Shown here: one piece after another, positions 6,926 through 33,079 of the stretch | How positions within the stretch are numbered: position 1 is the stretch's first letter | How the letters are laid out: each line of letters opens with the position of its first letter | Assembly: GCA_018606645.1 (NCBI GenBank) | Contig: JAGVRI010000005.1 | Location: 50,629-114,628 of the forward strand | Length of the DNA stretch: 64,000 nucleotides | From: Chloroflexota bacterium | GTDB taxonomy: Bacteria > Chloroflexota > Anaerolineae > JAAYZQ01 | Reading direction: 5' to 3' | The notes under the pieces: generated by a model | What the model was told of the DNA's origin: nothing | Seen by the model: only the letters and a program-made list of their open reading frames with translations | The model's database searches: none | Position numbers and translations under genes: made by a program

Positions 6926-6961
6926 TGAACACCTCGATATTCCGCATGCTGAACGGCAAGT

Positions 6962-7624
6962 CTATGCATAGCGCAACCGCCGTTCGAGCAGGGCAACGCC
7001 TTTGGAAGAAAGCCAGACGATGCACACATAGATCAGGGCCACCGTGGTATAGAACTCAAAGGGCCGCCAGGTCATCGTCGTCTGCACCTGCGCCGTGCGC
7101 ATCAGTTCCATCACGCCGAGCAGGGAGACCAACGAGGAGTCCTTGATGGCTCCCACCCACATGTTGCCGACCGGAGGGATAATGATCCGGATCGCCTGGG
7201 GCAGGATCACATACCGATAGGTCTGGGCAGTGGTCAATCCGATCGTCATCGCTGCTTCGGTCTGGCCCCGACCAATAGCCTGAATCCCCGAGCGAAAGAT
7301 CTCGGCCAGATATCCCCCGTACTGGGTCGACAGGCAGATTGCGGCGGCCAGAGTCGGCTCAAAATCGACTCCCGTCGCCATGGCGATGCCAAAATAGAGC
7401 CAGATCAGGTACACCATTTGCGGGATGCCGCGAAAGAAGTTGATGTAGAGGGCCGCCGGCACGCTCAGGAAGCGATACCTGGAGATGCGCAGTAGGGCGA
7501 TAAACAGGCCGATCAAACAGCCGAAGGAGAGCGCCAACACCGCCAGCATAAATGTATACCGCAACGAGGCCAACAGCACGTTCCACACTCGCAAGACCGG
7601 ACCAAAATCAGGGATATAGGGCAT
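6962..7624 (-). CDS. polar amino acid ABC transporter permease
   Basis: His/Glu/Gln/Arg/opine-family permease with the EAA-like loop (TQTEAAMTIGLTTAQTYRYVILPQA). Confidence 0.8.
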   Translation of the reverse strand: MPYIPDFGPVLRVWNVLLASLRYTFMLAVLALSFGCLIGLFIALLRISRYRFLSVPAALYINFFRGIPQMVYLIWLYFGIAMATGVDFEPTLAAAICLSTQYGGYLAEIFRSGIQAIGRGQTEAAMTIGLTTAQTYRYVILPQAIRIIIPPVGNMWVGAIKDSSLVSLLGVMELMRTAQVQTTMTWRPFEFYTTVALIYVCIVWLSSKGVALLERRLRYA

Positions 7625-9987: not shown

Positions 9988-10602
9988 TCAGTTCCCTGCC
10001 AGAGGTTCTACTTCCATGATCACATGGTCCATTCGGACTGTCTGTCCCACAGCCGCCCGGATTTTCTTAACAATCCCCTCCCGGGGTGCCCGGATCACAT
10101 TCCGGGTCTTCATCGCTTCCAGGATGGCTACCCCGTCACCCGCTTTGACATTTTGGCCTTCTTGGACCAGGAATTCGACCAGCACCCCGGTCATAGGGCT
10201 GGTCACGGCACCAGCGCCGGCCTCCTCACGGCCTGGAACTCTGGGCCCGCCGAGAGTTGTCGCCGATATGGCCCGATCCTCTGGACGCCGTCGGTCCTCC
10301 CGCCTCAGCCCTTGCGGAATCCGCTCGCCGCTCACCCGGACCTCGTACCGATTCCCCTCGACGATCACCGTGTAGCCGTCTTCCCCAGGCTCCACCAGGA
10401 CCTCGTACGACCTGGGGCCGATCAACAACGAGAACAAGGATTCGCCAATGCGCTCCAGATGGGCGTCCCGTGGCTGATCGTTCACCATCACTCGGCCGTT
10501 TTGCTCGATGCGGATTCGATATTCCTCTCCGGCAAGAGTTGTAACATAGTTCACCGATCTCACGTCTCCTGTCATGTCTCTCACCCCATGGCTGCGGTCC
10601 AC
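9988..10602 (-). CDS. biotin carboxyl carrier protein (biotinyl domain)
   Basis: The C-terminus has the biotinylation motif (GDGVAILEAMKTRNVIRAP). The N-terminus has YRIRIE/YEVRV beta-hairpin repeats typical of small BCCPs. The true start may be the internal ATG at 10575. Confidence 0.8.
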   Translation of the reverse strand: MDRSHGVRDMTGDVRSVNYVTTLAGEEYRIRIEQNGRVMVNDQPRDAHLERIGESLFSLLIGPRSYEVLVEPGEDGYTVIVEGNRYEVRVSGERIPQGLRREDRRRPEDRAISATTLGGPRVPGREEAGAGAVTSPMTGVLVEFLVQEGQNVKAGDGVAILEAMKTRNVIRAPREGIVKKIRAAVGQTVRMDHVIMEVEPLAGN

Positions 10603-10611
10603 TTCTCATCA

Positions 10612-13600
10612 CTAACCGGGGATGATCCCACAGCGTCGTTCAATTCTCTTGGCCTCTCTGAGGCTGTAGAATTCGAGGCGGGCAATTAACTCATCCCGCA
10701 GTTGGGTGGCCGGAATGATCGCCTCAAAGAAGAACTCGCTGGCCATTGCGTAGGGATCGATATTGTCCTCATACTCGTCTTGCTTCGCCTGAATGAACGC
10801 CGGACGCTCCTCGGGCGGCAATTCCATGATCTTGTTATAGTAAATGGCGTTGATGGCTGCGGCTGGCCCCATGAGGGCCGGCTTGGCCGTGGGCAGAGCA
10901 ATGACCGCATCGGGGTTAATGGGAGCGCCAGACATGGCCAGGTATCCGCCTCCATAGGCCTTGCGCACGATGACACAGATGCGGGGCACCGTGGATTCCG
11001 AGACGGCGTAGAGGAATTTGGCGCCGTGGCGGATAATACCCTGTCGCTCCACCTGAGTGCCGATCATAAAGCCGGCAATATCATTCAGGAACAGCAGCGG
11101 GATGTTGAAGGCGTTGCAGATCCAGATAAAACGGGCGGCCTTGTCGGCCGAATCGGGAAAGATGACCCCCGCTTTGATCAACGACTGATTGGCGAGGATG
11201 CCCACCGAACGACCTCCCAGCCGGGCCAACCCGGTGATCATCTCCGGCGCAAACAGCTTCTTGTACTCCCACCAACTGCCTTCGTCAATGATCGCCTCAA
11301 TGAACTCATACATGTCAAACGGGATGCTCTCCCGGCTGGGGACGATCTCTTCGATCGGCCGGCCGGGCGCCGGGTCCCGGGGTTCGACCATCGGCGGCTT
11401 CTCCCGCCAGTTTTGGGGAAAATAGGAGAGGTATTTGAGGGCCGCATCCATCGCTTCCTTGTCATCAGCGACGAGCATGTCCCCCAGCCCGCTGACCTCG
11501 CAGTGCATCCGCGCGCCGCCCATCTCCTCCATCGTCACCTTTTCGCCGATGGCCATTTCGGCCATGCGCGGCGATCCCATATACACCGTGGCATTCTTGT
11601 CCACCATGATGGTCACGTCGCACAGCGCCGGAACATACGCCGATCCAGCGGGGGAGGGACCAAAGAGGATGCAGATCTGAGGGATGCGTCCGGAGAAGAT
11701 GATCTGGTTATAGAAGATATTGCCCCACGCATCCCGTCCTGCGTAGCAGTGGTGCTGGTCGTCAATGCGTGCTCCGGCGGAATCAATGAGATAGAGCAAC
11801 GGGATGCCCAGTTCGTCCGCCTTGCGCTGCATATAGGTCATCTTCTTGTAGCCAATCCGTCCCCAGGTCCCTGCCTTGACCGTCATGTCGTTGGCGATAA
11901 TGGCTACCTTCCGCCCCTCGATGGTGCCCAGACCGACGATCATTGCGTCGGCCGGCAGTCCCTCAGCGTAGCGGGCGAACAGCCCATCCTCTACAAAGGA
12001 GCCAGGATCCAACATGTATTCAATACGGTCCCGCACAAACATCTTGTTCTGTTCCGCGAGTTGTTTGTGGTACTTTTCCGGGCCGCCTTTATAGAGCGTC
12101 TCCATCCGCTGCAGAAGCTCCAGATGCTGAGGCGGTGGATTTTGGGATTGAGTCAGCGGCTTTTTTCTCGGCTCGGGACGCTCCTGGGGTTGGGCGGGCT
12201 GGATCTTTTCCATCCGTTCACCCTTCCTTTCACCGGCGGGGGATGGACCGGCCAGAACTTGTTGATGATGGACCAGCGTGGCAGTGAGAGCTGCGACTTC
12301 TTCCAGTTCTTTGCTTTCTACTCGGCTCAGCACAAAACTATCAAGAAACGAGGTATCATATACCCCTTGGACAAAGGACGGGGTCTCCATCACCTGCTGG
12401 TGGAACGGGATCGAGGTGGGGATGCCGACGATGACATATTCCCGCAACGCCCGACGCATCCGTCGGATGGCCTCCTCACGGCTATCTCCCCAGGCAATCA
12501 GCTTGGCCAGCAACGAGTCATAGTGGGGAGACACTTCGCAGCCCTCGTACAGGCCGCTGTCCACCCGAATTCCCGGACCACCGGGCTGGACCAAGGTCGT
12601 GATCCGGCCACTATGCGGAATGAAATCGTGAAAGGGGTCTTCGGCTGTGATCCGGCATTCGATGGCCCACCCCCGTGGCTGGATATCCGCTTGCTCGTAA
12701 CGCAACGGCTCCCCCGCCGCAATGCGGAGTTGTTCGACGACAATGTCCACCCCGGTCACACATTCTGTCACCGGGTGCTCTACCTGGAGCCGGGCGTTCA
12801 TCTCCAGGAAGTAGAAATTGCCCTCCTGATCCAGCAAGAACTCGACGGTCCCGGCGTTGACATACCCCGCGATCAATGCCGCACGCACCGCAATCTCTCC
12901 CATCCGGCTCCGTAGCTCGCTGTCTACGGTGGGGGAGGGGCATTCCTCGATCAGCTTCTGATGCCGTCGCTGGACCGAGCACTCCCGTTCCCCCAGGTAG
13001 ATGGCGTTGCCATGTCGGTCCACCAGAATCTGGACCTCGACATGATGGGGTTTCTGGATCGCTTTTTCCAGATAGACCCGGTCATCGCCAAAGGCGCTCA
13101 ATGCCTCGCCGCGAGCAGCGCCCAAGGTGCGGAGCAGCTCATCCTGGTTTTGAACCAGGCGCATGCCCCTGCCGCCTCCCCCGGCTGCGGCCTTGATAAA
13201 GAGCGGAAATCCGATACGATCGGCTTCGCTGACCAGTTCCTCATCACTCAGGTCTCGTTCCGTGCCGGGAACAATCGGCACTCCCGCCCGCTGCATGAGC
13301 TGCCGCGCCTTTACCTTGTCCCCCAGAGCGGCCATGGCCTGGGCGGGAGGGCCGATGAACACAATTCCTGCCTCCTCGCAGGCGGCAGCAAATTGGGGAT
13401 TCTCGGCCAGGAACCCATAGCCGGGATGAATGGCCTCCGCCCCGCTCTGGCGGGCGACCTCGATCAGCCGCTCGATGCGCAGATAACTCTCTCGAGCAGG
13501 GGCTGGACCGATATGGTAGCTCTCGTCGGCGTAACGGACGTGGAGCGCCGCCCGATCGGCGTCCGAATAGACCGCGACCGTCTGGACGCCCAACTCCCGG

Positions 13601-13674
13601 CAAGCCCGCATGACGCGGACCGCGATTTCACCCCGATTGGCAATCAGCACTTTTTTGAACATCCGATATCCCAT
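10612..13674 (-). CDS. acyl-CoA carboxylase with biotin carboxylase (ATP-grasp) fused to a PccB/AccD-type carboxyltransferase; no BCCP domain
   Basis: One 1020-aa ORF. Residues 1-450 are a biotin carboxylase (KVLIANRGEIAVRVMRACRELG, ATP-grasp). After a Pro/Gln-rich linker comes a carboxyltransferase (MFVRDRIEYMLDPGSFVE, MGGARMHCEVSGLGD). Confidence 0.85.
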   Translation of the reverse strand: MGYRMFKKVLIANRGEIAVRVMRACRELGVQTVAVYSDADRAALHVRYADESYHIGPAPARESYLRIERLIEVARQSGAEAIHPGYGFLAENPQFAAACEEAGIVFIGPPAQAMAALGDKVKARQLMQRAGVPIVPGTERDLSDEELVSEADRIGFPLFIKAAAGGGGRGMRLVQNQDELLRTLGAARGEALSAFGDDRVYLEKAIQKPHHVEVQILVDRHGNAIYLGERECSVQRRHQKLIEECPSPTVDSELRSRMGEIAVRAALIAGYVNAGTVEFLLDQEGNFYFLEMNARLQVEHPVTECVTGVDIVVEQLRIAAGEPLRYEQADIQPRGWAIECRITAEDPFHDFIPHSGRITTLVQPGGPGIRVDSGLYEGCEVSPHYDSLLAKLIAWGDSREEAIRRMRRALREYVIVGIPTSIPFHQQVMETPSFVQGVYDTSFLDSFVLSRVESKELEEVAALTATLVHHQQVLAGPSPAGERKGERMEKIQPAQPQERPEPRKKPLTQSQNPPPQHLELLQRMETLYKGGPEKYHKQLAEQNKMFVRDRIEYMLDPGSFVEDGLFARYAEGLPADAMIVGLGTIEGRKVAIIANDMTVKAGTWGRIGYKKMTYMQRKADELGIPLLYLIDSAGARIDDQHHCYAGRDAWGNIFYNQIIFSGRIPQICILFGPSPAGSAYVPALCDVTIMVDKNATVYMGSPRMAEMAIGEKVTMEEMGGARMHCEVSGLGDMLVADDKEAMDAALKYLSYFPQNWREKPPMVEPRDPAPGRPIEEIVPSRESIPFDMYEFIEAIIDEGSWWEYKKLFAPEMITGLARLGGRSVGILANQSLIKAGVIFPDSADKAARFIWICNAFNIPLLFLNDIAGFMIGTQVERQGIIRHGAKFLYAVSESTVPRICVIVRKAYGGGYLAMSGAPINPDAVIALPTAKPALMGPAAAINAIYYNKIMELPPEERPAFIQAKQDEYEDNIDPYAMASEFFFEAIIPATQLRDELIARLEFYSLREAKRIERRCGIIPG

Positions 13675-14474: not shown

Positions 14475-15257
14475 CTATCCCCAGTTTGGTTTGCGCTTGT
14501 TGAGAAATGCATCCACCCCTTCGGCCACATCATCGCCCAGCATATAGACCACCCGGATGTTGCGCGCGAATTCGAGCGCTTCGTCATAGCCCATATCCGC
14601 CGTGGCGTAAAAGAGCCGCTTGCCCAACGCGATCGCAGCCGGCCCTTTTTCGGCCAGACTGGTTGCCAGTTCCATCGCCTCGTTCGACAGCGCATCGCGG
14701 GGCACCACCCGATTCACCAGACCGATCCGCAAGGCCTCTTCGGCATCGAGGATTCGGCCGGTCAAGGCCATCTCTAACGCCATCCGCTCGCCAACCACAC
14801 GGCGGAGCGCCGGCAAGATGATCATCGGAAAGAGGCCGATCCGGATCTCGGTGGTGCCCAACTTTGCATCATCGGCGGCAATGGCCATGTCACACAGGGC
14901 GACCAGACCGCACCCTCCGGCCAGGGCATACCCCTGCACCGCAGCGATGACCGGCGCGCGCATCGCCGGCACCAGGCGAAACAGCTCGATCCACGGTTCG
15001 GCGGCCTGCCAGTGGTCAAAGGCCGGAAGTTTCAGTTCCTCAGCAAACTCTTTCAGGTCTCCACCGGCTGAAAAATGGTCCCCTGCCCCCGAGATGACCA
15101 CGGCGCGCACCTCAGGGTCGGCATCTACGCCCCGCAGCGTCGAGGTCAGGGCATGGACCATCGCATAGTTCATCGCGTTCCGCTTTTCCGGGTGGCAAAG
15201 GGTCAAGCGTACGACGCGGCCGATCCTTTCCTGAAGGACCAGAGATTCTCCGCTCAT
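14475..15257 (-). CDS. enoyl-CoA hydratase/isomerase (crotonase family)
   Basis: Crotonase motifs (LTLCHPEKRNAM, ISGAGDHFSAGGDLKE, AAVQGYALAGGCGLVALCDMAIA). The start was trimmed to MSGESLV, directly after the upstream gene's stop. Confidence 0.85.
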   Translation of the reverse strand: MSGESLVLQERIGRVVRLTLCHPEKRNAMNYAMVHALTSTLRGVDADPEVRAVVISGAGDHFSAGGDLKEFAEELKLPAFDHWQAAEPWIELFRLVPAMRAPVIAAVQGYALAGGCGLVALCDMAIAADDAKLGTTEIRIGLFPMIILPALRRVVGERMALEMALTGRILDAEEALRIGLVNRVVPRDALSNEAMELATSLAEKGPAAIALGKRLFYATADMGYDEALEFARNIRVVYMLGDDVAEGVDAFLNKRKPNWG

Positions 15258-15259
15258 GA

Positions 15260-16624
15260 TTACACTTCTTCCACCACTACCTTGATCTGGATGGCATCGC
15301 GGGGGATGAGCGTCGGCCACAGAGAGATCACCGGACGCACCGGGAACGGGACGCCGAACGCGGTGCCAATCCCTCCCAAGGTCCATAGGTGGGTGGCCTC
15401 TCGGCGAACCAGGTCGGCCTCCTCAGGAGTGCGGAGCTTGGCGGCGATGCGCAGTCCGACTTCGTTCAGTTCCCCCGTAGGCCGGGGAGCGGTCCGTCCG
15501 TGCAAGGCATTCACGCCGACATAATCAAAGCGGATCTCGATCGGCTCCACTTTGATCCGGTGCTTCAGCCGCATGCGCACAATCTCTTCCGCCCGCTGTG
15601 CTTTTTCCAGCGCGTCGGGCCAGGAGAAGAGAAGGAGCCCCTCGGCGATATAGCCATCCCGATACCCGATGCAGAGCTTCAAGGTATCAGGTCGGGGCTT
15701 CCCCCGAAAGCCTTTCACCCGGACTCGGTTCTCACCCACCTCTTCCACCGTAACGTCACTCAGATCGGCGATGCCGTCCGGCATGTAGTAGTTGTACGGA
15801 TCGAGGACTTCGTACAACAGTTGTTCTTTGACGGTCCACTGATTGACGATCCCGCCGGTATCCGGCGCCTTGGTAATGATCGCCTCCGGGACCTCGTTCA
15901 CCTCGGCAATGGGGAAGCCGATCTTCCAGGCATCCTTCGCCTCGCGCCACTGGTTCGACCCTCCCCCCGTGCAAAAGCAGGCACATTCCAGGAGATGGCC
16001 GATGACGATGCCTCCCCCGATCTTGTCCCAGTAGCCATCTTCAAAGCGCCAGCCAAATTCGTGCATCAACGCCGCCACAAAAGGCGCACCATCGGAGATG
16101 CGGCCGGCGATGATATACTTGGCCCCGGATTGCAGCGCCTCCAGAATGCCGTCCGACCCGATGTAGGCGTTGGCTGCCACAATGTCCTGGCGGATGCGAT
16201 CGAGCCCTTCTTCCCCTGTATCCATGTTGACAAAGGGCACCCCCTCAGCCGCTAACCGGTCCAACTGGTCGAACACGTCATCGCCGCTGATGGTCGCCAC
16301 CTTCAGCCCCTTGAACCCCATCTTGCGGGCCAATTCAATGACCTGACGGCCTCCTTCCTCCGGATTGGCTCCCCCGGCATTGGTGATCATGGTGATGCCC
16401 TTCTCATAGGTAATGGGCAACAACGCTTCTGTCCAGGGGATCAGGTCGGGGATATAGCCATGTTTGGGGTTCTTGCTCTTGTAGCGCTGCAGAATGGCCA
16501 GTGTCAACTCGGCCAGGTGGTCCAGGCCAAGATAGTCAATGTCCCCTTTGGCCGCCACATCGATGGCCGGATCGAGCATGTCGCCCCAGTAGGCCGAACC
16601 ATTTCCTAAACGTACGGTCTTCAT
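15260..16624 (-). CDS. AtuA-like acyclic terpene utilisation family protein (DUF1446)
   Basis: 454 aa. The N-terminus (RLGNGSAYWGD ... DIDYLGLDHLAELTL) matches the DUF1446/AtuA family. Confidence 0.7.
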   Translation of the reverse strand: MKTVRLGNGSAYWGDMLDPAIDVAAKGDIDYLGLDHLAELTLAILQRYKSKNPKHGYIPDLIPWTEALLPITYEKGITMITNAGGANPEEGGRQVIELARKMGFKGLKVATISGDDVFDQLDRLAAEGVPFVNMDTGEEGLDRIRQDIVAANAYIGSDGILEALQSGAKYIIAGRISDGAPFVAALMHEFGWRFEDGYWDKIGGGIVIGHLLECACFCTGGGSNQWREAKDAWKIGFPIAEVNEVPEAIITKAPDTGGIVNQWTVKEQLLYEVLDPYNYYMPDGIADLSDVTVEEVGENRVRVKGFRGKPRPDTLKLCIGYRDGYIAEGLLLFSWPDALEKAQRAEEIVRMRLKHRIKVEPIEIRFDYVGVNALHGRTAPRPTGELNEVGLRIAAKLRTPEEADLVRREATHLWTLGGIGTAFGVPFPVRPVISLWPTLIPRDAIQIKVVVEEV

Positions 16625-23576: not shown

Positions 23577-24350
23577 TTAATGTTTGAGTATGGCCGACAA
23601 AAACTGTCGCGTTCTTGGCTCCTGGGGATGGGTCAAGATCTGATCGCACGGCCCTTCTTCAATGATTTGACCTTCACACAGAAAGACGATCCGGGAACCG
23701 ACCTCGCGGGCAAAGCCCATCTCGTGGGTGACCACGATCATCGTCATCCCTTCTTCTGCCAGCCGTTTCATCTCAGCCAGGATACCGCCGATCAACTCCG
23801 GGTCTAATGCTGAAGTGACCTCGTCAAACAACATCAATTTGGGTTCCATCACCAGGGAACGGGCAATAGCCACCCGTTGCTTCTGACCACCGGAAAGGGT
23901 ATCTGGATAGGCGTGAAGTTTGTCCCCCAGTCCAACCCGCTCCAACTGGGCCTTGGCTCTCTGCTCTGCCTCTGCCTTGGGGATCTTGAGCGCCTGTTCT
24001 AATCCCAGCGTACAGTTCTGGAGGGCCGTAAGATGAGGGAATAGGTTGAAATGTTGGAAGACCATCCCGATGTGGGTGCGCAGATAGCGCAGGTCTTCCT
24101 GCCCACGGCCCCTCAAACGGTCTTGCCACGAGTGTTTGACGGCATAGTTTTTGCCCAGGAAGATCACCTCGCCGGAATCGGGCCACTCCAACAGGTTGAC
24201 GCACCGGAGCAAGGTGGACTTGCCCTGGCCGCTGGGGCCGATGATGACCACCACTTCCTGGCGATGCACGGTGAGGTTGATGCCTTTCAGGACCTGATGA
24301 TCGCCAAACGATTTCGTAATGTTGACCAGTTTCAGAATCTCTTCAGCCAT
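23577..24350 (-). CDS. polar amino acid ABC transporter ATP-binding protein
   Basis: Walker A (GPSGQGKST), ABC signature (LSGGQKQRVAIARSL) and Walker B (LMLFDEVTSALD). Confidence 0.9.
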   Translation of the reverse strand: MAEEILKLVNITKSFGDHQVLKGINLTVHRQEVVVIIGPSGQGKSTLLRCVNLLEWPDSGEVIFLGKNYAVKHSWQDRLRGRGQEDLRYLRTHIGMVFQHFNLFPHLTALQNCTLGLEQALKIPKAEAEQRAKAQLERVGLGDKLHAYPDTLSGGQKQRVAIARSLVMEPKLMLFDEVTSALDPELIGGILAEMKRLAEEGMTMIVVTHEMGFAREVGSRIVFLCEGQIIEEGPCDQILTHPQEPRTRQFLSAILKH

Positions 24351-24355
24351 AGTTT

Positions 24356-25030
24356 CTAGATACCCCTCGCTTGTACGTGACGTGAATAATGCCGCTCAAT
24401 CACACTTACCAGCCGGGAAAACCCAAGAACCAGCAAAAAGTAGATCACTGCCGACGCTGTATAGAACTCGAACGGACGAAAATGGAACTTGGTCAAACGG
24501 TCCGCCTGTTTCATCAGGTCCCAAACGCCTACCACTCCGACAATGGCGGCGTCTTTGAGCATGTCCACAAACAGATTCGCTGCCGACGGGATCACGACCC
24601 GCAGCGCCTGGGGCAAGACAATGAGGCGAAAGGTGGACAGATTGCTCAGACCCAGCGCTCGGGCGGCCTCGTATTGACCAAAGCCGACCGTGCCCAGACC
24701 CGTACGGTACACCTCGGCCATGTAGGCGCTATTCAGCAGCCCCAGACAGAGCACCGCCGCCGTAAAGGGCGGCAGGTTGATATCAAGCGCGATGGCCAGT
24801 CCGAAAAAGACCCACAGAATCAGAACATAGAGCGAAGTGCCCCGAAAGAATTGAATGAAGAGAAAGGCGGGCAACCAGAATACCGGCAGGCGAGAGGCAC
24901 GCAGTAAAGCAACGGGCAGCCCCAGTATCAAAGCCACTCCTAACGCCAGCAACGCCACCTCTATGGTGACCAGCGTTCCGTGCAGGAGAGGCAACCGGGC
25001 GTTCCATACAAGGTCCAGGCGGAAAGTCAT
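24356..25030 (-). CDS. polar amino acid ABC transporter permease
   Basis: Permease with EAA loop (EAARALGLSNLSTFRLIVLPQA). Confidence 0.8.
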   Translation of the reverse strand: MTFRLDLVWNARLPLLHGTLVTIEVALLALGVALILGLPVALLRASRLPVFWLPAFLFIQFFRGTSLYVLILWVFFGLAIALDINLPPFTAAVLCLGLLNSAYMAEVYRTGLGTVGFGQYEAARALGLSNLSTFRLIVLPQALRVVIPSAANLFVDMLKDAAIVGVVGVWDLMKQADRLTKFHFRPFEFYTASAVIYFLLVLGFSRLVSVIERHYSRHVQARGI

Positions 25031-25044
25031 ATGCCCGTCCTTCC

Positions 25045-25713
25045 TCAGCTCCGTCGCCAGCGGTAACGCGATTCCAGCCAGCCGGCCAGCGCGGCGAATA
25101 CCAAGGTGCTGGAGATAAAGATCACCCCGGCCGTGGAATAGAACTCGAACGGCTTGAAGGTCAACGCCGCCGAAGTACGGGCAAAATACATCAGATCGAA
25201 CACCCCAATGATCCCCACAATTGTGGCCCCCTTCAGGATCCCCACGAATTGATTCATCGTCGCCGGCAGAACCGTGCGAAACACCTGGGGCAGCACCACT
25301 TTTCGGTAAAGCTGGCTGGTGCTTAATCCGATGGACACCCCGGCCTCATACTGGCCCCGGTCCACTGCCAACAAACCGGACCGATAGATCTCGGACATAT
25401 AGGCAGCCGCGATCAGCCCCAACGCCAACACCGCTGCTTCAATGGCCTGTAACCCCAGGCCAAAGGCAACCTTGAAGCCGTAATACAACCACAACAGAAA
25501 CACGTACAACGGCAGCGATCGAAAGAACCCCACATACAACCTCGCCGGGGCCTGTATCATCGGGTTCCTGGAGTTCCGCAGCAGGGCCAGGATGAGCCCC
25601 AGTCCCATGGCCACCAGCATTGACCAGGCCGCCACATAATAGGTGATCAGCGTGGCGTTCAGAAAGTTCTGCCAGTTGCTGGTGATGATCTTCCAGTCAA
25701 ATCTGAATTCCAT
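25045..25713 (-). CDS. polar amino acid ABC transporter permease
   Basis: Paralogous permease (YEAGVSIGLSTSQLYRKVVLPQV). Confidence 0.8.
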   Translation of the reverse strand: MEFRFDWKIITSNWQNFLNATLITYYVAAWSMLVAMGLGLILALLRNSRNPMIQAPARLYVGFFRSLPLYVFLLWLYYGFKVAFGLGLQAIEAAVLALGLIAAAYMSEIYRSGLLAVDRGQYEAGVSIGLSTSQLYRKVVLPQVFRTVLPATMNQFVGILKGATIVGIIGVFDLMYFARTSAALTFKPFEFYSTAGVIFISSTLVFAALAGWLESRYRWRRS

Positions 25714-25841
25714 GTATGGACCCCATCCTGCGGACCATGGGCCTGGACATCGAGTCCGAGGGAGCGAACTGAGGAAATCATTGGATCCCGCGTCCAGCCC
25801 GCTCCCTCAGATCCCCCAGACCTGCTGTCTCAAGAATCCCG

Positions 25842-26813
25842 CTACTTGCCCCAGGCCTCCTGAATGGCCCTGACGCCAGGCAGTTCCCCAATCCAATACT
25901 TGAATCGGTTCTGCTGCCAGCCGTGAGCCGCATAGTAGCGGAACCAGGTACCCATCCACTCTTTGGTCCTGTAGTCGCCCAGTGGCACAAAGAAGGTGTT
26001 CACATCAGAAAAGAGCGAGCCACCTGGCCAGATATCCACCGTGCCCGGGTTCTCATGAAGATAGGCCGCCGCATTCCAGATGGCGATCAGGCAGGCGTCG
26101 GAGCGCCCAGCGGCCACCTCCAGCACCGTTTCCGGCCAGTTGAGCGGTTTGAATGTGGCGTTGGGGAACATCAAACGAGCCGAAGCGTCCTGGGCAGAAC
26201 CGCTCATGTTGCTAAAGGTCACCTCAGGCTTGTTCAGGTCTTCCAACTTGTCGACGGTGAAGCCCTTCCGGAGGAGTAACACCGAGTCCTCGAAGAAGGT
26301 GGGTTCGTCAATGAAAAGGACTTGCTTGGCCCGCTCCGGCGTGGTGGTGAACGCGATCCCGATCCAATCGAATTTGTCGGCCAGCAGCCCGGCAATCAAC
26401 TCCCCAAACGGCATCTCGACATATTCCAGCTTGACCCCCAGGTCCTGGGCCATCAGAGCATCAATTTCGGGCATCAACCCCTTGGGTTCGTTGGTGCTTG
26501 GATCGCGGAACTGAAGGGGCGGGAAGGTGAGGTCCACCCCTACGCGCAACACGCCATTCTTCAGGACGCGGTCAAGTCTGGGCTCAACGGCCTGGGCGGG
26601 CGGCGGTGAGGCCTGGGCCACTTTCGTCGGCGGAGTTGTCGGACCCGCCATCGCCACCGTTTCGGCCGGCGTGTTGGTCGCCGGAACCACCACCGTGGGC
26701 TCTGTGGCGCCAATGGTGCAGCCTACCGCCAATGTCCCCAGAGCGCCGGCGCTCGCGGCCAGCAGAAAATCACGGCGATTCATTTGCTTATTCATACTGC
26801 TCTCCCTCCTCAT
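25842..26813 (-). CDS. amino acid ABC transporter substrate-binding lipoprotein
   Basis: RRDFLLAASAGALGTLAVGC signal/lipobox, a Pro/Thr/Ala linker, then a family-3 SBP fold. The true start is probably the internal MNKQMNRRDFL. Confidence 0.8.
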   Translation of the reverse strand: MRRESSMNKQMNRRDFLLAASAGALGTLAVGCTIGATEPTVVVPATNTPAETVAMAGPTTPPTKVAQASPPPAQAVEPRLDRVLKNGVLRVGVDLTFPPLQFRDPSTNEPKGLMPEIDALMAQDLGVKLEYVEMPFGELIAGLLADKFDWIGIAFTTTPERAKQVLFIDEPTFFEDSVLLLRKGFTVDKLEDLNKPEVTFSNMSGSAQDASARLMFPNATFKPLNWPETVLEVAAGRSDACLIAIWNAAAYLHENPGTVDIWPGGSLFSDVNTFFVPLGDYRTKEWMGTWFRYYAAHGWQQNRFKYWIGELPGVRAIQEAWGK

Positions 26814-26938: not shown

Positions 26939-28099
26939 TCAGCTCTCTTTCGCCACCCGGTCGATAAAGTCGCGCATGCGGCGGATGCCTTCTTCCAGAT
27001 CTTCTAGGGACGAGGCCAGCGAGATGCGCACATAGTTTCGGGCCGTTTCCCCAAAGGCGGTACCCGGCGCGACGGCCACTCTGGCTTCTTCTAACAGCTT
27101 GAAGGCAAAGGTGCGGGAATCCATTCCGCTCCGTGAGACATCGGCCATGGTATAGAATGCGCCGTGCGGCGTCGAAGTCCACATCCCGTACTTGCGCAAC
27201 AGCCCATCCACCACATCCCGACGGTGCCGATACGCCTCTAGCATCCTGAACACGGGCTCACGCGGTCCCTTCAGGGCCGCCTCGGCACCCTTTTGCGCGA
27301 AACTTGTGGCACACGACATGTTCGCTTCCAGGATTTTATTGATGACATCCGCAAGTTCGCGGTTGGTCACCACGTAACCGACCCGATAGCCGGTCATGGC
27401 ATAGGTTTTCGAAAAGGTAAAGACTGAAATGACGTGGCCATCATCCCAGAAAGAGGCGGGAGAGACATGCTCGCCCTCAAAAACAATTTCATCGTAGCAC
27501 TCATCCGAGAGCAGGTACAGATCGTATTTCTGGCACAGTTCGACGATCCCCTCAACCACTTGCCGGGGAAAAACCGCTCCGGTCGGGTTGCAGGGAGAGT
27601 TGATGATCAGCAACTTGGTGCGCGGGGTGATATAGCGTTCCAACTCCTCTGGATCCGGGGCGAAATCGCGCTCGGCATGAAGGGGATAACGAACGACTCT
27701 GGCTGGTGAGTAGCTCAACTCCAGTTGGTAGTTAGGCCAGGCCGGATCGGGGAGCAACACCTCGTCGCCCTGCTCCAACAAAGCCAGGAGCGCTGCCGCA
27801 ATGCCACCCACTCCGCCGATGGTCACATTGATCAGCGAAGGTTCGGTTCGGATCTTGTTCACCGTGGCCAGTTTCTCCACCAGGAGTTGGCGCAGGCTCA
27901 ACAGGCCGGCCGTGGCAGTATATTTGGTGACCCCCTCTCGCACCGCTTTTACCGTCGCCTCGACGATATGCTCCGGTGTATCAAAATCCGGCTGCCCCAC
28001 CTCAAGACGGATGGCATCGGGCATGGTGAGCGCCACATTGACGATCTCCCGGATCCCGGAATGAGCGACTTCACGTGGACCTGCCGCTAATGGTTTCAT
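26939..28099 (-). CDS. pyridoxal-phosphate-dependent aminotransferase class I/II (aspartate/aromatic aminotransferase-like)
   Basis: 386 aa with the PLP-lysine region (FSKTYAMTGYRVGY) and an N-terminal AHSGIREI motif. Confidence 0.85.
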   Translation of the reverse strand: MKPLAAGPREVAHSGIREIVNVALTMPDAIRLEVGQPDFDTPEHIVEATVKAVREGVTKYTATAGLLSLRQLLVEKLATVNKIRTEPSLINVTIGGVGGIAAALLALLEQGDEVLLPDPAWPNYQLELSYSPARVVRYPLHAERDFAPDPEELERYITPRTKLLIINSPCNPTGAVFPRQVVEGIVELCQKYDLYLLSDECYDEIVFEGEHVSPASFWDDGHVISVFTFSKTYAMTGYRVGYVVTNRELADVINKILEANMSCATSFAQKGAEAALKGPREPVFRMLEAYRHRRDVVDGLLRKYGMWTSTPHGAFYTMADVSRSGMDSRTFAFKLLEEARVAVAPGTAFGETARNYVRISLASSLEDLEEGIRRMRDFIDRVAKES

Positions 28100-28111: not shown

Positions 28112-29203
28112 TTATTGCTCACAGTCGGAACGAACCAGATCCACCGTTGTGCCGAGAAAGACCAGTTCGCCTGATCGTACCACATAAAAGTCAATAATGG
28201 GATTTAACCGATCGCCGGTGGAAGAAAAGGTAATCGGCCCACTGGCACCCGGATAGTTTTGTGTCCTGGCCACCTGTTCTCGTACTGTCTCGCGATCCGA
28301 CGCGCCAGCCCTGCGCAATGCCTCAATGAGGATATTGGCTGCATCGTACGCCTCCGCCGTATAGATCGTATAGTCGGCGAGATCGGGAAAGGAGCGGGCA
28401 TATGACCGCCGGAAATCGGCCGCCGACGGATATCGTCGGACATCCGCGCAGGCGCTGGTATAGTAGGGGCCCACCACCTCGACTTCGGGCGTTTCCAGAT
28501 ATCGAGAGGGTTTCAGTCCGTCAGCGCCCAAATAGGGAGCCAGAACGCCGCCTGCTCGTAACTCATGGGCCATGGCCGATCCTTCGGCCTCAATCAAACC
28601 GAAATAGATGAGGTCGGGGCCTGCGGCCCGAACCCGCTGGACGGCATCCGGAAAGTGACGTTGGCCTCGTTGAATGCCTTCAAACAGCACGATCTCTGCT
28701 CCGTGCTTATGGGCTTCGTCAGCAAATATCTCGGCCAGCGGCTGGCCAAAGGCCGAATGGTCATGCAACACAGCGATCCGCCGGGCACCGACGAAGCGGA
28801 CGGCGCACCTGGCCGCTTCCCGGCCCTGGACTTCGTCGGAAGCCACCACCCGAAAGAAGGTATCCCATCCCTGGCGCGTCAGGTTTGGGTTCGAAGCGGC
28901 CGGGCAGATGTGCACTAGACGAGATTGGTGATAAATAGGCGCGGCTGCCTGGGCAGGGGTGCTATTGAACGGCCCGACGACGCCCAAGACCGCCGGGTCC
29001 GTACTGAATTGACGGGCAACAGCCTCGCCCCCTTCGCTGGTGCAGGCATCATCGAGAGAGACCAGTTCAATCTGAAAAGGCAGGTCCCCTCGTTCGTTAG
29101 CCTGTCTTACGGCCAGTTCCACAGCATGATCGGCCGCTATCCCGTGCACTTTCTCTTCACCCGAGAGCGGCACGGAATGTCCAATCCTGACCGTCTTTTT
29201 CAT
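28112..29203 (-). CDS. type-I periplasmic-binding-fold protein (LivJ/AmiC-like) lacking a signal peptide
   Basis: LivJ-like fold (IGHSVPLSGEEKVHGIAADHAVELAV..., GVVGPFNSTPAQAAAP). The N-terminus MKKTVRIGHSVPLSG has no hydrophobic h-region. An in-frame upstream stop rules out an N-terminal extension. Confidence 0.75.
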   Translation of the reverse strand: MKKTVRIGHSVPLSGEEKVHGIAADHAVELAVRQANERGDLPFQIELVSLDDACTSEGGEAVARQFSTDPAVLGVVGPFNSTPAQAAAPIYHQSRLVHICPAASNPNLTRQGWDTFFRVVASDEVQGREAARCAVRFVGARRIAVLHDHSAFGQPLAEIFADEAHKHGAEIVLFEGIQRGQRHFPDAVQRVRAAGPDLIYFGLIEAEGSAMAHELRAGGVLAPYLGADGLKPSRYLETPEVEVVGPYYTSACADVRRYPSAADFRRSYARSFPDLADYTIYTAEAYDAANILIEALRRAGASDRETVREQVARTQNYPGASGPITFSSTGDRLNPIIDFYVVRSGELVFLGTTVDLVRSDCEQ

Positions 29204-29250
29204 CTATCTAGCTCCTCATCCTGATTCGATCCTTCTCCAGCCAGCGGACG

Positions 29251-29718
29251 CTATGCATCCATCTGTCGGGGCAAGTCCGGAGACCCGGGTATCTCTGCGC
29301 CGTGCCCATGTTGCTGTAAGATCGCCACCAACGCATCCTCGGCAAAGCGCAGGCCGTCGTGTATCCCTTGGCGATACGGACCACTCCCCTTGGCCGCGTT
29401 ATAGGCTTGCTCTTCCCGGATACGGCGAATCAGGTCCCCTATCATGGTTGCCAAATCATCCGCCACATGCACCGCCATCTCGCCCTGCTCCAATAAGGCA
29501 GAGTCCCTTGGCGGCAATGCGCTGATTTTCTTTTCAGTCGCCAACAGAAGCGACTCCAGTTGTTCAGGATCGTAACCGACCACGTAGCGCTCCCCCACGG
29601 CGACAACCGGCACGACAAGCTCGCCAGTCAAGGCCAACAACTCGGCCCTGGCCTGAGGGTCGAGGCGGATGTTCCGCTCAACAAACGAGATGTTACGTGC
29701 GGAGAGAAACTCTCTCAA
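29251..29718 (-). CDS. glutaredoxin-like fold protein with a C-terminal domain of unknown function
   Basis: The N-terminal ~70 aa resemble a glutaredoxin/NrdH fold (REFLSARNISFVERNI ... LVVPVVAVGERYVVGYDPEQL) but have no CxxC motif. The C-terminal ~80 aa were not recognised. Confidence 0.4.
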   Translation of the reverse strand: MREFLSARNISFVERNIRLDPQARAELLALTGELVVPVVAVGERYVVGYDPEQLESLLLATEKKISALPPRDSALLEQGEMAVHVADDLATMIGDLIRRIREEQAYNAAKGSGPYRQGIHDGLRFAEDALVAILQQHGHGAEIPGSPDLPRQMDA

Positions 29719-29823
29719 CCGACAGCACTCCTGTCAAGTCGGCGTACGATAGTCGGTATTGAGCGTATACACGAGAATTTCGGGAACCGTCATTCCGTGT
29801 CCCACTTTCTAGCATCGCAGACA

Positions 29824-30861
29824 TTAACGGAGCAGCGTCATTTCGCCGCGAATTACCTGCCAGATCGTCACCCGGGCATTTTGCCGGTTGCCATCGGGTC
29901 GAAAAAGAACCGGGCCCGTCACCCCTACAAAGTCGTTCAGGCCCTTCAATTCTGCCAGCACGGCGCCTCGGTCGGGCGCTCCAGTTCGACGGATCGCCTC
30001 CAGCAAGATACAGGCCGCGTCATAGGCTTCTGGTCCAAAGATGGGGCAATCACCATACCGGCCCTGGTATCTGTTCAGAAACGTTTGGGCTTTAGGCATG
30101 GACCATGCATCCACTCCGGCATAGGTTTCGTACACTCCCTCTGCCGCTTCCCCTGCCAGCCGTGGGAATGGTGAGCCACGGCCGCCATCCGCTCCGAAAA
30201 GCTGGGCGCGGACCCCTGCCGCCCGTAAGGCACGGGTCAAGAAGGCGCTCTCGATCTCGGTTAATCCGAAATAGATCAGGTCGCATTCTACCGCCTTGAG
30301 GCGGTTCACCGTGTCTCCAAACGCTCTTTGCCCCAGCCGGATCGCTTCCACCAGGACCATTTGTGCTCCACCCTGACGGATGGTTGAGATAAATGCCTCG
30401 GCCAGAGGACATCCATAGTCAGTATTGTCATGGACCACCGCCACCCGCTGCACCTGAAGGACATCGAGAGCGTATCGGGCAGCGGCTGCTGCCTGGTCGT
30501 CATTGGTGGCACATACCCGAAAAAAGGTCTGCCATCCCTGGCGCGCCAGATCCGAATTGGTAGAAGAGGGAGTGATCTGGGCGAGCCCGCCGGCGGCATA
30601 CACTGCACCGGCTGCCCGCGACGGGCCGCTGTTTTTGTGCCCTACCACCCCTACTACCTCGCTATCTTTGATCAAAACCTGAGCCAGCTCCCGCGCCTTA
30701 TGCGGGTCTGCCTGGTCATCCAACGCCAACAGTTCTACAGGAAAGGGAACCTGGCCAGCTTCTCGGGCCTCTTCTATCGCCAGCGCCACGGCGTGCATCA
30801 TCGGGATGCCTACCACCGATTCAGGACCCGATAATGGGGCCAGGAATGCGATCTTGGCCAT
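29824..30861 (-). CDS. type-I periplasmic-binding-fold protein (LivJ/AmiC-like) lacking a signal peptide
   Basis: Paralog of the 28112-29203 gene (IAFLAPLSGPESVVGIPMMHAVALAIEEA). The start was chosen at MAKIAFL (ATG at 30861, preceded by GGAAGGGGAG). Even the longest ORF (to 30963) has no signal peptide. Confidence 0.75.
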   Translation of the reverse strand: MAKIAFLAPLSGPESVVGIPMMHAVALAIEEAREAGQVPFPVELLALDDQADPHKARELAQVLIKDSEVVGVVGHKNSGPSRAAGAVYAAGGLAQITPSSTNSDLARQGWQTFFRVCATNDDQAAAAARYALDVLQVQRVAVVHDNTDYGCPLAEAFISTIRQGGAQMVLVEAIRLGQRAFGDTVNRLKAVECDLIYFGLTEIESAFLTRALRAAGVRAQLFGADGGRGSPFPRLAGEAAEGVYETYAGVDAWSMPKAQTFLNRYQGRYGDCPIFGPEAYDAACILLEAIRRTGAPDRGAVLAELKGLNDFVGVTGPVLFRPDGNRQNARVTIWQVIRGEMTLLR

Positions 30862-30967
30862 CACTCCCCTTCCACCAACTCCGATCGTGCTAAATTCAGC
30901 CCACGCCTGTCTAAGAAAAGAGTCGGGTGGTGGCTTCGCACCAGGGAGCCACCACCCGGTCATCTAC

Positions 30968-32674
30968 CTATTTGGCGCACAGATAGGGATCGACCTTCCA
31001 GGCTTCGTTGAACACATATCCCTTGACCCACTGGCGAATGGCAATGGCCTTACCAGGCTGGACCAGCGGAACAAAGGGCCCTTTCATCTGCATATAGGCC
31101 TGGATATCGCTCCAGATCTCGGCACGTTTCTTGGGGTCCATCTCGACCGCAGCCGCGTCGCGCAGGTCTTTGATTTCTTGATCCGCCCGCTCATCGGTCC
31201 ACTGCGCCCGCAGACCGACAATCCCTTCTGGCAGGAATTCCAGATAGTCCGAGACGTCGTAATAGTCCGCGCCCCACATCCAGAAGGAGAAGCCTTCCTC
31301 GCCAGCTCGATAGCGAGCCAGCACGGTCATCAACTCGCCGGGCTTGAGGGTGACATTGATCCCTACTTCGGCCAGGTCTGCCTGCACCTTCTCGGCGATG
31401 ATATCAAAATCCACACCGCTGCGGGCAAACTTGGTGGGGTATTCCATCTCGATGTCAAAGCCGTTCGGATAACCTGCCTCGGCCAACAATTGTTTGGCCT
31501 TGTCCAGGTCTCGCTTGATGGCTCGATCGGGCCCCCAGGCGCCCATGAAGCCATAGGGTACAATGGTGGCGGGAGTGATGGCCGAACCACCCACTAGCGA
31601 CAGGATACCCTCATAGTCAATGGCGTACCGGATCGCCATGCGCACCCGTTCATCGCTCATGATGCCGTTAGTCAGGTCAGGGTTCATGTTGCATAGCAAG
31701 AAGAACATATCAGTGCCCAGGCCCTCGATCACCTTGATCTGCGGGTTAGCCTCCAGGGCCGGAACCTGATCGCCCTTGATCTCAGTGGCAATATCAATAT
31801 CCCCAGCTTCCAGGGTAAGTTTCTGGGTTGCCGCATCGGGAATATGGCGATAAATGACCCGATCAAAGAAAGCAGGCCCCCGCCAGTAGTCCGGGAACTT
31901 TTCCACGACCACCTCGGTTTCGGGCACCCAGCTCTTGAGGACAAACGGACCGGTCCCGGCCGAGTTCTGGTTCAGCCACTCCTCCGCTTTGTCGGTCTGG
32001 TCCGCATCGGGTCCGCTGGTCCCGCCATGCTCCATCACCGTCTTGCTGTCCAGGACGGCAAAGACAAAGAAGGTGGACTTGGCCAGGAAGGCCGGGTCGG
32101 GCTTTTCTTTGGTCACAACCACCGTATAGTCGTCCGGAGTGTCAATGCTGACCACCCCATCGAACAGGAAGGAGGGGTTGCCCTTGAGTCCCATCGCCCG
32201 TTCCCAGGACCATTTCACATCGGCAGCGGTCATCTCGTTGCCGCTGTGGAATTTGACCCCTTTCCTCAGTTTGAAGGTAAAGACCTTGCCATCCTCGGAG
32301 ACCGTCCAGCTCTCGGCCAGATCGGGGACGATCTCGCTCACGTTGTCGTCGGCCCAGGTGACCAGCGTATTGTACGTCGCTTTGTGAACCATGCCGGCCA
32401 CGATCTCAAAGGCCCGGCCTGGGTCCAGCGTGGTCTGGTCAAAACCGGCGCCGATGACCAACTCCTTGGGCTTGGGAGCCACTTCCTGGGGCACCACCAC
32501 GGTCTCTTTGACCACCACTTCCTGGGTCACGACCTTTTCCACGACCTGGGGAGTGCCGGCCACCACCACCGTTTCCTTGACCACCTGGGGAGTGGGCGTT
32601 GGGGCGCACCCGGCCAACGCCAGGCTCGCCAACGCAATGACAGACAAAAGTACCAGCCACTTTCTGGAAATCAT
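30968..32674 (-). CDS. ABC transporter substrate-binding lipoprotein, family 5 (oligopeptide/nickel type)
   Basis: 568 aa. Lipoprotein signal (LLSVIALASLALAGC) and a Val/Glu/Thr-rich linker, then a DppA/OppA-like fold. Confidence 0.8.
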   Translation of the reverse strand: MISRKWLVLLSVIALASLALAGCAPTPTPQVVKETVVVAGTPQVVEKVVTQEVVVKETVVVPQEVAPKPKELVIGAGFDQTTLDPGRAFEIVAGMVHKATYNTLVTWADDNVSEIVPDLAESWTVSEDGKVFTFKLRKGVKFHSGNEMTAADVKWSWERAMGLKGNPSFLFDGVVSIDTPDDYTVVVTKEKPDPAFLAKSTFFVFAVLDSKTVMEHGGTSGPDADQTDKAEEWLNQNSAGTGPFVLKSWVPETEVVVEKFPDYWRGPAFFDRVIYRHIPDAATQKLTLEAGDIDIATEIKGDQVPALEANPQIKVIEGLGTDMFFLLCNMNPDLTNGIMSDERVRMAIRYAIDYEGILSLVGGSAITPATIVPYGFMGAWGPDRAIKRDLDKAKQLLAEAGYPNGFDIEMEYPTKFARSGVDFDIIAEKVQADLAEVGINVTLKPGELMTVLARYRAGEEGFSFWMWGADYYDVSDYLEFLPEGIVGLRAQWTDERADQEIKDLRDAAAVEMDPKKRAEIWSDIQAYMQMKGPFVPLVQPGKAIAIRQWVKGYVFNEAWKVDPYLCAK

Positions 32675-33050
32675 CCTTTCCTCCCTTTAATCAAGTTTCT
32701 TTCATACGGTTTCCGGATGCACCAGCAACTAGAAGATCAACCCCGATACGATCACCCCCTTCCCAAGGATCACTCCAGAAAAAAATGAATACGCCCTCAG
32801 ATGCACTACTAACACTAACACTGCGAACGATAGCTGGATCCGGTTGGATTGCGGACGGTTTGGAGTCCAGGCACCGTAACCGAAACTGGTTCAACAAGAC
32901 AACAGTTGCCCAGGCAGCATATCCTGCATCATTCAGAATACAAAATGCTATTTTGTGTTTGCGCCATTATATCATAGCCGTCGGGGCTTGTCAAGTATGG
33001 CGCGATAAAATTTTGGGGACACCCGAACCTCCGTTTCGCACGTCATAGAT

Positions 33051-33079
33051 TTGAGACTTTGACCAAGCCATGCTACAAT
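33051..33079 (+). promoter_or_regulatory. sigma-70-type promoter (TTGAGA -17 nt- TACAAT) upstream of the methyltransferase gene
   Basis: TTGAGA at 33051-33056 and TACAAT at 33074-33079 with a 17-nt spacer, about 70 nt upstream of the ATG at 33151. Confidence 0.5.

Follow-up and report, generated by a model that had tools for sequence, protein, structure and literature searches.

The 64-kb stretch of DNA analysed here (the window), from an Anaerolineae (Chloroflexota) bacterium, carries three co-directional open reading frames (ORFs) on its minus strand, at 28112-29203 (363 aa), 29251-29718 (155 aa) and 29824-30963 (maximal ORF). We found that the middle gene, Grx-Sec, encodes a selenoprotein with a glutaredoxin (Grx) domain, in which a hairpin farther downstream helps to recode the UGA at 29734-29736 to selenocysteine (Sec, U). 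The two flanking genes encode LivJ-fold proteins without an export signal, PBP-A and PBP-B (PBP, periplasmic binding protein), which belong to a diversified leaderless clade, no longer found in LivHMGF transporter operons but in operons for cytoplasmic catabolism. The elements concerned are located as follows:

29824..30861, minus strand: PBP-B, leaderless LivJ-fold protein (Peripla_BP_6) of 345 aa, starting MAKIAFLAPLSG; maximal ORF to 30963
29251..29793, minus strand: Grx-Sec, selenoprotein gene of 180 codons read through an in-frame TGA, with a YruB/NrdH-like glutaredoxin domain and a C-terminal domain
29734..29736, minus strand: in-frame TGA read as selenocysteine
29702..29716, minus strand: hairpin GAGAGA-GUU-UCUCUC, resembling a selenocysteine insertion sequence (SECIS), starting 18 nt past the UGA
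28112..29203, minus strand: PBP-A, leaderless LivJ-fold protein of 363 aa, starting MKKTVRIGHSVPLSG, with His at the position of LivJ Tyr18

The first-pass annotation had described the middle gene product as a 155-aa protein without a CxxC motif, and public databases likewise store it as a 155-aa 'glutaredoxin', 5'-truncated and lacking its active site. This ORF is in fact the 3' part of the 180-aa UxxC selenoprotein gene. The glutaredoxin Pfam match on the 155-aa ORF (PF00462, 4.9e-07) begins at profile position 16 of 60, indicating that the ORF is N-terminally truncated and that the active site is missing. The in-frame DNA upstream of it reads MTVPEILVYTLNTDYRTPT-TGA-QECCRLREFL, and this extension restores strand beta-1 and the motif TPT-U-QEC, with the UxxC placed at the first-Cys position of CxxC. 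Writing C in place of U lifts the YruB-family score from 44 to 60.6 bits and moves the start of the match to profile position 5.

The same truncation is found in the homologs, of which a database of 5.8 billion proteins contains 58: all 15 sequences retrieved from among these begin at MR[ED]FL, immediately past the TGA, or farther in. For a comparison at the DNA level we fetched 63 related loci besides the window. TGA is present at the same site in the window and in 61 of the 63 loci, never replaced by TAA, TAG or a sense codon, and the surrounding context, [LF][YF][STI]LN[ST]xxRTPT-U-QECCR, is essentially invariant. The TGA-bearing loci span Anaerolineae, Acidimicrobiia/Spongiisociaceae, Gaiellales/Thermoleophilia and Egibacteraceae/Euzebyaceae, and across three phyla the peptide 5' of the TGA is kept in frame, its variation being synonymous. 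TGA is the ordinary stop codon of 14 of the 40 confident genes in the window, which therefore uses the standard genetic code, and reassignment of TGA by code 4 or code 25 was ruled out on this basis. An exhaustive HMMER scan of 1.84 billion representatives gave no Cys version of the two-domain family. The single read-through entry in the databases, P0201, carries Gly at the site (TPT-G-QECC), most likely the product of a gene caller translating TGA by genetic code 25 on that contig. Apart from the Grx-Sec gene, scanning the window for redox motifs interrupted by UGA returned nothing but noise.

In the window clade, the 6-bp hairpin downstream of the UGA is supported by codon conservation and not by free energy. 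The residues R-E-F-L-S are encoded as AGR-GAG-TTT-CTC-TCC in 24 of 24 distinct sequences, and the codons that form the hairpin include some for Arg and Phe that these genomes seldom use, with a joint codon probability of ~10^-3.5 each. Compared with synonymous recodings, the 45 nt that follow the UGA have more structure (mean z -1.8 over 50 distinct sequences), and the Acidimicrobiia have a long post-UGA stem-loop for which z = -3 to -4.6 in the same comparison. Several results weigh against recoding by this element. The minimum free energy (MFE) of the window's own post-UGA sequence is no better than that of its synonymous recodings (z ~0), and an Rfam scan of 29550-29850 matched no family. 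RNAalifold, applied to 34 aligned sequences, did not recover the downstream hairpin and chose a weak invariant hairpin that contains the UGA and shows no covariation; we attribute this miss to shifts of the hairpin register between clades, and the synonymous-recoding and codon-usage tests were used in its place. Neither selA, selB, selD nor tRNA-Sec was found in the 64-kb window, which carries no tRNA gene at all, so that we infer the Sec trait of the genome.

The form of the RNA element differs between lineages. In the loci L007-L021 (Acidimicrobiia), the 45 nt past the TGA fold into a much longer stem-loop, GGAGUGCU..GUUCGGG-ACUU-CCUGAAC..AGCACUCC, than in the window clade; the element has been remodelled and the peptide is almost unchanged.

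The 180-aa protein consists of the glutaredoxin domain (T-U-Q-E-C-C) and a C-terminal domain of ~60 aa, predicted to form a helical hairpin, in which the motif G..R.G.HDGLRFA is invariant and Y, N and K residues are nearly so. The AlphaFold2 model of the 155-aa part is of moderate quality (predicted local distance difference test, pLDDT, 65); in Foldseek its Grx part matches cGrx1 and NrdH, and it is 46% identical over 57 aligned columns to clostridial cGrx1 (7C10, 7C12, structures of a Cys homolog), the nearest solved structure. The best curated NCBIfam models for this domain are those of YruB (TIGR02196, 60.6 bits), NrdH (TIGR02194, 35.6 bits) and UXX-star (NF041212, 39.3 bits), all below their curated cut-offs of 88.55, 85.75 and 66 bits, respectively. 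The C-terminal domain has no match in Pfam or NCBIfam and no significant one in Foldseek, its best PDB profile match being YojF (1NJH) with a non-significant E of 0.81. ANTAR and GAF are among the Pfam families that it fails to match, and it belongs to neither type.

Sec-containing glutaredoxins are an experimentally verified selenoprotein family (PMC13188914). The window protein shares with them (PF00462, UxxC; Grx1 of Clostridium/Alkaliphilus oremlandii OhILAs) the Grx fold and the use of Sec for the first Cys of CxxC, but it adds the conserved helical-hairpin C-domain to the A. oremlandii type and has the motif TPT-U-QEC-C. Its family differs further in that no Cys form was found, in its occurrence in Chloroflexota and Actinomycetota, and in its location in amino-acid/peptide operons. 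It differs also from UXX-star family 1, which has a UxxT motif according to the table of the same review (PMC13188914), in having UxxC and a second domain.

Two other features of this family were observed. In L066, a Chloroflexi-type contig, two adjacent genes (6802-7219) encode the Sec-Grx (SPR-U-QEC) and the helical C-domain separately, a fusion/fission signature of the two domains; the pair follows a leaderless PBP, a short-chain dehydrogenase/reductase (SDR) and an M24/creatinase-like gene, and precedes an SBP5 peptide importer (SBP, solute-binding protein). In addition, the family ends in a nearly invariant Asp-Ala (..MDA, ..LDA, ..WDA; in the window at 29251-29262, minus strand), which suggests a recognised C-terminus.

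The flanking genes were confirmed to be paralogs, as first annotated, and the three genes lie at the positions given there. PBP-A and PBP-B match Peripla_BP_6 (PF13458) at 7e-45 and 1.5e-46, and the two proteins share 41% identity over 345 aa. Their predicted cytoplasmic location also stands. No start for PBP-A is possible upstream of the ATG at 29203, where an in-frame stop intervenes, and the maximal ORF of PBP-B adds 34 residues that are not hydrophobic, the gene callers of its relatives placing the start at the ATG that corresponds to 30861. The two PBP starts are preceded by Shine-Dalgarno-like sequences (GAGGAG and GGGGAG). The alignment to the LivJ model begins at model position 24-27, right behind the 23-residue signal peptide of LivJ, and at residue 2 in PBP-A and residue 36 in the maximal PBP-B ORF. 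The neighbouring SBP5 and SBP3 proteins of the same operon have obvious lipoprotein or twin-arginine translocation (Tat) signals, in line with the earlier statement that the transporters nearby have exported SBPs of their own.

The absence of a leader extends to a whole clade. All of the ~90 full-length PBP-A homolog clusters at 42% identity or above are leaderless and start M-x(2-5)-[VI]-[KR]-[IL]-G without any hydrophobic stretch, and all homologs at 38% or below have a hydrophobic segment and a lipobox. The raw DNA of 80 metagenome loci confirmed this by an in-frame stop upstream of the domain, the pattern holding for the loci of at least 37% identity in which the 5' end is present. Two of the signal-bearing relatives lie in canonical operons (SBP, two BPD_transp_2 and two ABC_tran genes), and LivHMGF-type genes were found neither among the scanned ORFs of the window, as already noted on first reading, nor in L064-L066, the three PBP-A-homolog loci with called genes. 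The leaderless call is founded on hydrophobicity, lipobox inspection and in-frame stops, and the dependence of the cytoplasmic location on these counts against it. The public name of these proteins is 'branched-chain amino acid ABC transporter substrate-binding protein' (ABC, ATP-binding cassette), and a literature search for cytoplasmic LivJ-like proteins gave no relevant report. On the long-read-style contig L003 (4831-7593), the two PBP genes are split, leaving pieces of 320 aa and 214 aa that flank a spurious reverse ORF; the breaks look like indel errors rather than real pseudogenes.

Public annotation, in naming the PBPs as SBPs of an ABC transporter and the middle gene as a 155-aa protein, agrees with a simpler account, in which the PBPs are exported SBPs with mis-called starts or the TGA is a true stop that leaves a protein without active site, or a pseudogene. 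We find this scarcely credible: in-frame stops directly precede the PBP domains in dozens of independent assemblies, no LivHM permease is called in the leaderless loci L064-L066, and the peptide ahead of the TGA is maintained across phyla with a stop that is always TGA. These artefact readings are effectively refuted, which leaves a recoded selenoprotein between two leaderless binding proteins.

By sequence and fold, the PBPs group with SBPs that bind Leu, Ile, Val, Ala or gamma-aminobutyric acid, namely 4N0Q, Atu2422, LivK and LivJ, with sequence identities of 23-27%. The AlphaFold2 model of PBP-A (pLDDT 94.6) has as its best structural matches the Leu-/Ala-bound 4N0Q, Atu2422 and LivK, with template modelling (TM) scores of up to 0.86-0.90. 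In an alignment with LivJ, the equivalents of S79, A100, A101, T/S102 and E/D226 are kept, of which S79, A100-T/S102 and E/D226 are presumably the anchors of the alpha-amino and alpha-carboxylate groups of the ligand. Since these backbone-anchoring residues are kept, the PBPs probably still bind alpha-amino acids. Changes at other LivJ positions tell against this: His takes the place of Tyr18 in 87 of 89 sequences of the PBP-A type, and Val does so in PBP-B; Tyr150 is replaced by Phe in the PBP-A type, and Tyr202 is not kept. The equivalent of LivJ Cys78, the disulfide partner of Cys53, is also lost. The window PBPs thus have the same type-I PBP fold as the periplasmic Leu/Ile/Val SBPs of the HAAT group (LivJ, LivK, Atu2422, 4N0Q), but in contrast to LivJ-type SBPs they have no signal peptide and no linked LivHMGF genes, and are encoded inside operons of catabolic enzymes.

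AmiC of Pseudomonas aeruginosa, a LivJ-fold protein of the cytoplasm that senses amides and governs the antiterminator AmiR, had been named in the first-pass annotation as the precedent for this locus. The likeness holds for the type-I PBP fold, the missing export signal and the presence of catabolic genes alongside, but it goes no further. The leaderless clade is far closer to LivJ and Atu2422 than to AmiC, which is absent among the 60 matches listed in a PDB profile search and the 50 listed Foldseek matches. Peripla_BP_5 (PF13433), the AmiC/urea-type model, scores 2e-07 and 1.4e-11, far below the Peripla_BP_6 matches given above. No AmiR or ANTAR partner was found among the scanned ORFs of the window or in the loci with called genes, and the window PBPs keep alpha-amino-acid anchors rather than the amide pocket of AmiC.

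An AmiC-type module, in which the cytoplasmic PBPs sense a ligand and sequester a regulator of the catabolic genes, with the middle protein as output or redox partner, would explain why type-I PBPs without leaders stand at the head of an operon. Moreover, genes for a GAF histidine kinase and a GerE response regulator lie upstream in divergent orientation in L064, and a hairpin with a U-run just upstream of PBP-B could be an attenuator. We nevertheless regard such a module as doubtful. Neither the operon nor the loci L001-L003, L065 and L066 encode an ANTAR protein, AmiR or any other regulator, the C-domain of Grx-Sec matches no family in Pfam or NCBIfam (ANTAR and GAF included), and the paralogs occur in varied enzyme contexts (SDR, Old Yellow Enzyme (OYE), luciferase-like monooxygenase, aminotransferase) with no recurring regulator in the loci with called genes. 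Since neither a regulator nor an affinity to AmiC was found, an antitermination switch of this kind is less likely than a role in capture or hand-over, and the alternative of cytoplasmic substrate-binding chaperones, also raised at first reading, is viable.

The neighbours of the leaderless PBPs are enzymes, and they differ between subclades. Wherever the sequence beyond the PBP-A-type gene is long enough (15 of 15 loci), the next gene downstream is an aminotransferase; 13 of these loci pass a strict distance window, and the remaining two are explained by partial matches. The orthologs of PBP-A occur in the order SBP5, PBP-B, Grx-Sec, PBP-A, aminotransferase. In the group at 50-53% identity, the context is luciferase-like monooxygenase, PBP, a small EthD-like ORF, aminotransferase, 2-oxoacid dehydrogenase or oxidoreductase, and acyl-CoA mutase; in the group at 44-47% it is SDR, PBP and an OYE-type reductase; and for PBP-B-like genes it is PBP, SDR, (M24), Sec-Grx and SBP5. 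The small ORF of the 50-53% subclade (~110 aa, MSNRPIYFVRLKLDPAQEAAFNEWY...) is kept between the leaderless PBP and the aminotransferase (L064 8142-8471, L065 8272-8613 and similar loci), has no Pfam match, and is called 'EthD-like' by look only; in the same loci, the luciferase-like monooxygenase lies upstream of the PBP.

Such strict adjacency of PBP-A-type genes and aminotransferase, together with the pairing of other subclades with SDR or OYE genes, could also mean that the leaderless PBPs are themselves enzymes, or that they join the enzyme encoded beside them (aminotransferase, SDR or OYE reductase) in a complex as its specificity or regulatory subunits. There are precedents for PBP folds turned into enzymes, and the near-invariant His in place of Tyr18 lies in the pocket lid. 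We consider this quite unlikely, as fold and backbone anchors agree with those of normal ligand-binding proteins, the model is similar to liganded SBPs in the closed form, and no catalytic motif is evident.

The three genes lie near the front of what we read as a long operon for peptide and amino-acid uptake and breakdown. The other features of this part of the operon are:

32966..32994, minus strand: sigma-70-type promoter-like site upstream of the SBP5 gene, TTGACA-17-TATAAT, a 12/12 match with an extended-10 TG; likely the operon promoter
30968..32674, minus strand: SBP5, exported SBP_bac_5 peptide/nickel-type solute-binding lipoprotein, N-terminus MISRKWLVLLSVIALASLALAGC, first gene of the operon (ORF and Pfam/family matches)
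30911..30958, minus strand: 12-bp G+C-rich hairpin (CGGGUGGUGGCU...AGCCACCACCCG) followed by the U-rich run ACUCUUUUCUU; MFE -30.2 kcal/mol, z = -2.0
26939..28099, minus strand: class-I (subgroup Ib-like) pyridoxal-phosphate aminotransferase, 12 nt downstream of PBP-A, the conserved partner of PBP-A-type genes
23577..26813, minus strand: polar amino-acid ABC importer, with an SBP, permease-type ORFs and an ATPase-type ORF
25842-26813, minus strand: SBP_bac_3 (SBP3) of this importer, a Tat/lipoprotein (Pfam match and visible signal)
25045-25713 and 24356-25030, minus strand: two importer ORFs, whose counterparts in L001 are BPD_transp_1 permeases
23577-24350, minus strand: importer ORF, whose counterpart in L001 is an ABC_tran ATPase

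The gene order is thus promoter, exported SBP5, PBP-B, Grx-Sec, PBP-A, aminotransferase, polar amino-acid ABC importer, and then oxidoreductases and CoA enzymes, and Pfam scans bear out the initial placement of the trio at the head of a long catabolic array beside a polar amino-acid ABC system. The operon reading is based on the 12/12 promoter match, on intergenic gaps of 12-106 nt (12-47 nt between the genes from PBP-B on) and on synteny that is kept in related loci. The hairpin at 30911-30958, which the terminator scan missed, sits between the stop of SBP5 and the start of PBP-B, and may be a partial terminator, giving an excess of SBP5 mRNA, or an attenuator. Further downstream are two OYE/dienoyl-CoA-reductase-like enzymes, SDRs, a family-III CoA-transferase, thiolases, AtuA, an enoyl-CoA hydratase, a fused biotin carboxylase-carboxyltransferase and a methylmalonyl-CoA-mutase-like protein.

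Our best explanation combines these observations. Recoding of the UGA at 29734-29736 via the downstream hairpin yields a glutaredoxin-like protein of the YruB/NrdH type, 180 aa long and with U-x-x-C at its centre, which may serve as a selenol/thiol-disulfide oxidoreductase in amino-acid or peptide import or catabolism, reducing a disulfide-bearing imported substrate or a partner enzyme. The PBPs would bind alpha-amino acids or close analogues inside the cell, and are probably capture or hand-over proteins for the pathway, the PBP-A type serving the adjacent aminotransferase. Taken as a whole, including the placement of the region at the front of the uptake and breakdown operon, we judge this explanation to be probable, with appreciable room for error. 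Two further points tell against it. The enzymes encoded farther downstream, such as the OYE-type reductases, SDRs, CoA-transferase, AtuA and carboxylase, alone do not pinpoint the substrate, and the link between Grx-Sec and the PBPs is facultative. The PBP-Grx-PBP trio is restricted to one Anaerolineae lineage, outside which only L038, L058, L066 and L089 combine both genes; a PBP neighbour is missing for most Grx-Sec genes, as is a Grx neighbour for many leaderless PBPs. The earlier idea of an obligate three-protein module is weakened accordingly.

The genes next to Grx-Sec bear on what it may reduce. At 58 genome loci its neighbours include the ATPase of a polar amino-acid ABC importer (22), the permease (11), SBP3 (10) and SDR (11), and M24/creatinase-type genes recur beside it; the polar amino-acid importer is the most frequent neighbour across phyla. 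The SBP_bac_3 family, to which the SBP of this importer belongs, includes cystine transporters. A thiol/disulfide module is conceivable on these grounds, in which the Sec-Grx reduces imported cystine, disulfide-linked peptides or glutathione-type compounds, and the PBPs buffer the amino acid and pass it to the aminotransferase. The SBP3 of the window gives a weak match to cystine SBPs and SBP5 a match of the GsiB type, Grx-Sec and a leaderless PBP occur together in three separate lineages, and the PBP-A orthologs beside Grx-Sec share the clade-specific Cys54, Cys100 (just before the PAAS ligand loop) and Cys133, which are absent from the paralogs without Grx. We hold this proposal to be unlikely, however, because all SBP3 and SBP5 family matches are non-specific and far under the curated cut-offs, the remainder of the operon resembles branched-chain or acyl-CoA catabolism, and the cysteines of the PBP-B orthologs are not persuasive. 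A search for conserved Cys pairs that would make the PBPs substrates of the Grx gave no CxxC, and was likewise unconvincing for PBP-B, so that the three cysteines of PBP-A provide no more than a lead.

Within the capture and hand-over reading, a more specific version can be put forward as a tentative possibility, namely that LivJ-derived cytoplasmic binders have become dedicated capture or hand-over partners of catabolic enzymes, and that in some lineages they are coupled to a two-domain glutaredoxin, known in its Sec form only, for the reduction of an imported thiol or disulfide-bearing amino acid. To our knowledge, an intracellular relay of binding protein and selenoenzyme for amino-acid catabolism is a kind of system not described so far.

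What is new here is a Sec-glutaredoxin with an undescribed extra domain, for which no Cys form was found, and a cytoplasmic branch of LivJ with conserved enzyme partners. Two annotation errors follow. A selenoprotein family of Chloroflexota and Actinomycetota, with many members from sponge-associated metagenome-assembled genomes and seemingly no Cys-containing counterpart, is filed as a truncated 'glutaredoxin', and ~90 clusters named as branched-chain SBPs are leaderless, unlinked to transporters and tied to catabolic enzymes. If hand-over to an aminotransferase, or buffering of reactive amino acids, proves to be true, it would be a new use of the PBP fold beyond transport, chemotaxis and AmiC-type sensing, and the selenoproteins would gain a testable metabolic context.

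Some other features of the window were also observed. A 10/12 promoter match on the strand opposite to the SBP5 promoter (33051-33079, plus strand) faces a methyltransferase gene, the two sites forming a divergent promoter region. The 1020-aa fusion of biotin carboxylase and carboxyltransferase (10612-13674), a biotinyl-carrier protein (9988-10602) and the AtuA-family protein (15260-16624), all on the minus strand, adjoin one another and look like an acyl-CoA carboxylase set inside the catabolic array, and BioY is encoded at 590-1249. Finally, the enoyl-CoA hydratase ORF (14475-15386, minus strand) shares ~125 nt with the end of the AtuA gene, and residue 57 is the first that its Pfam match covers, so that its true start probably lies farther downstream.

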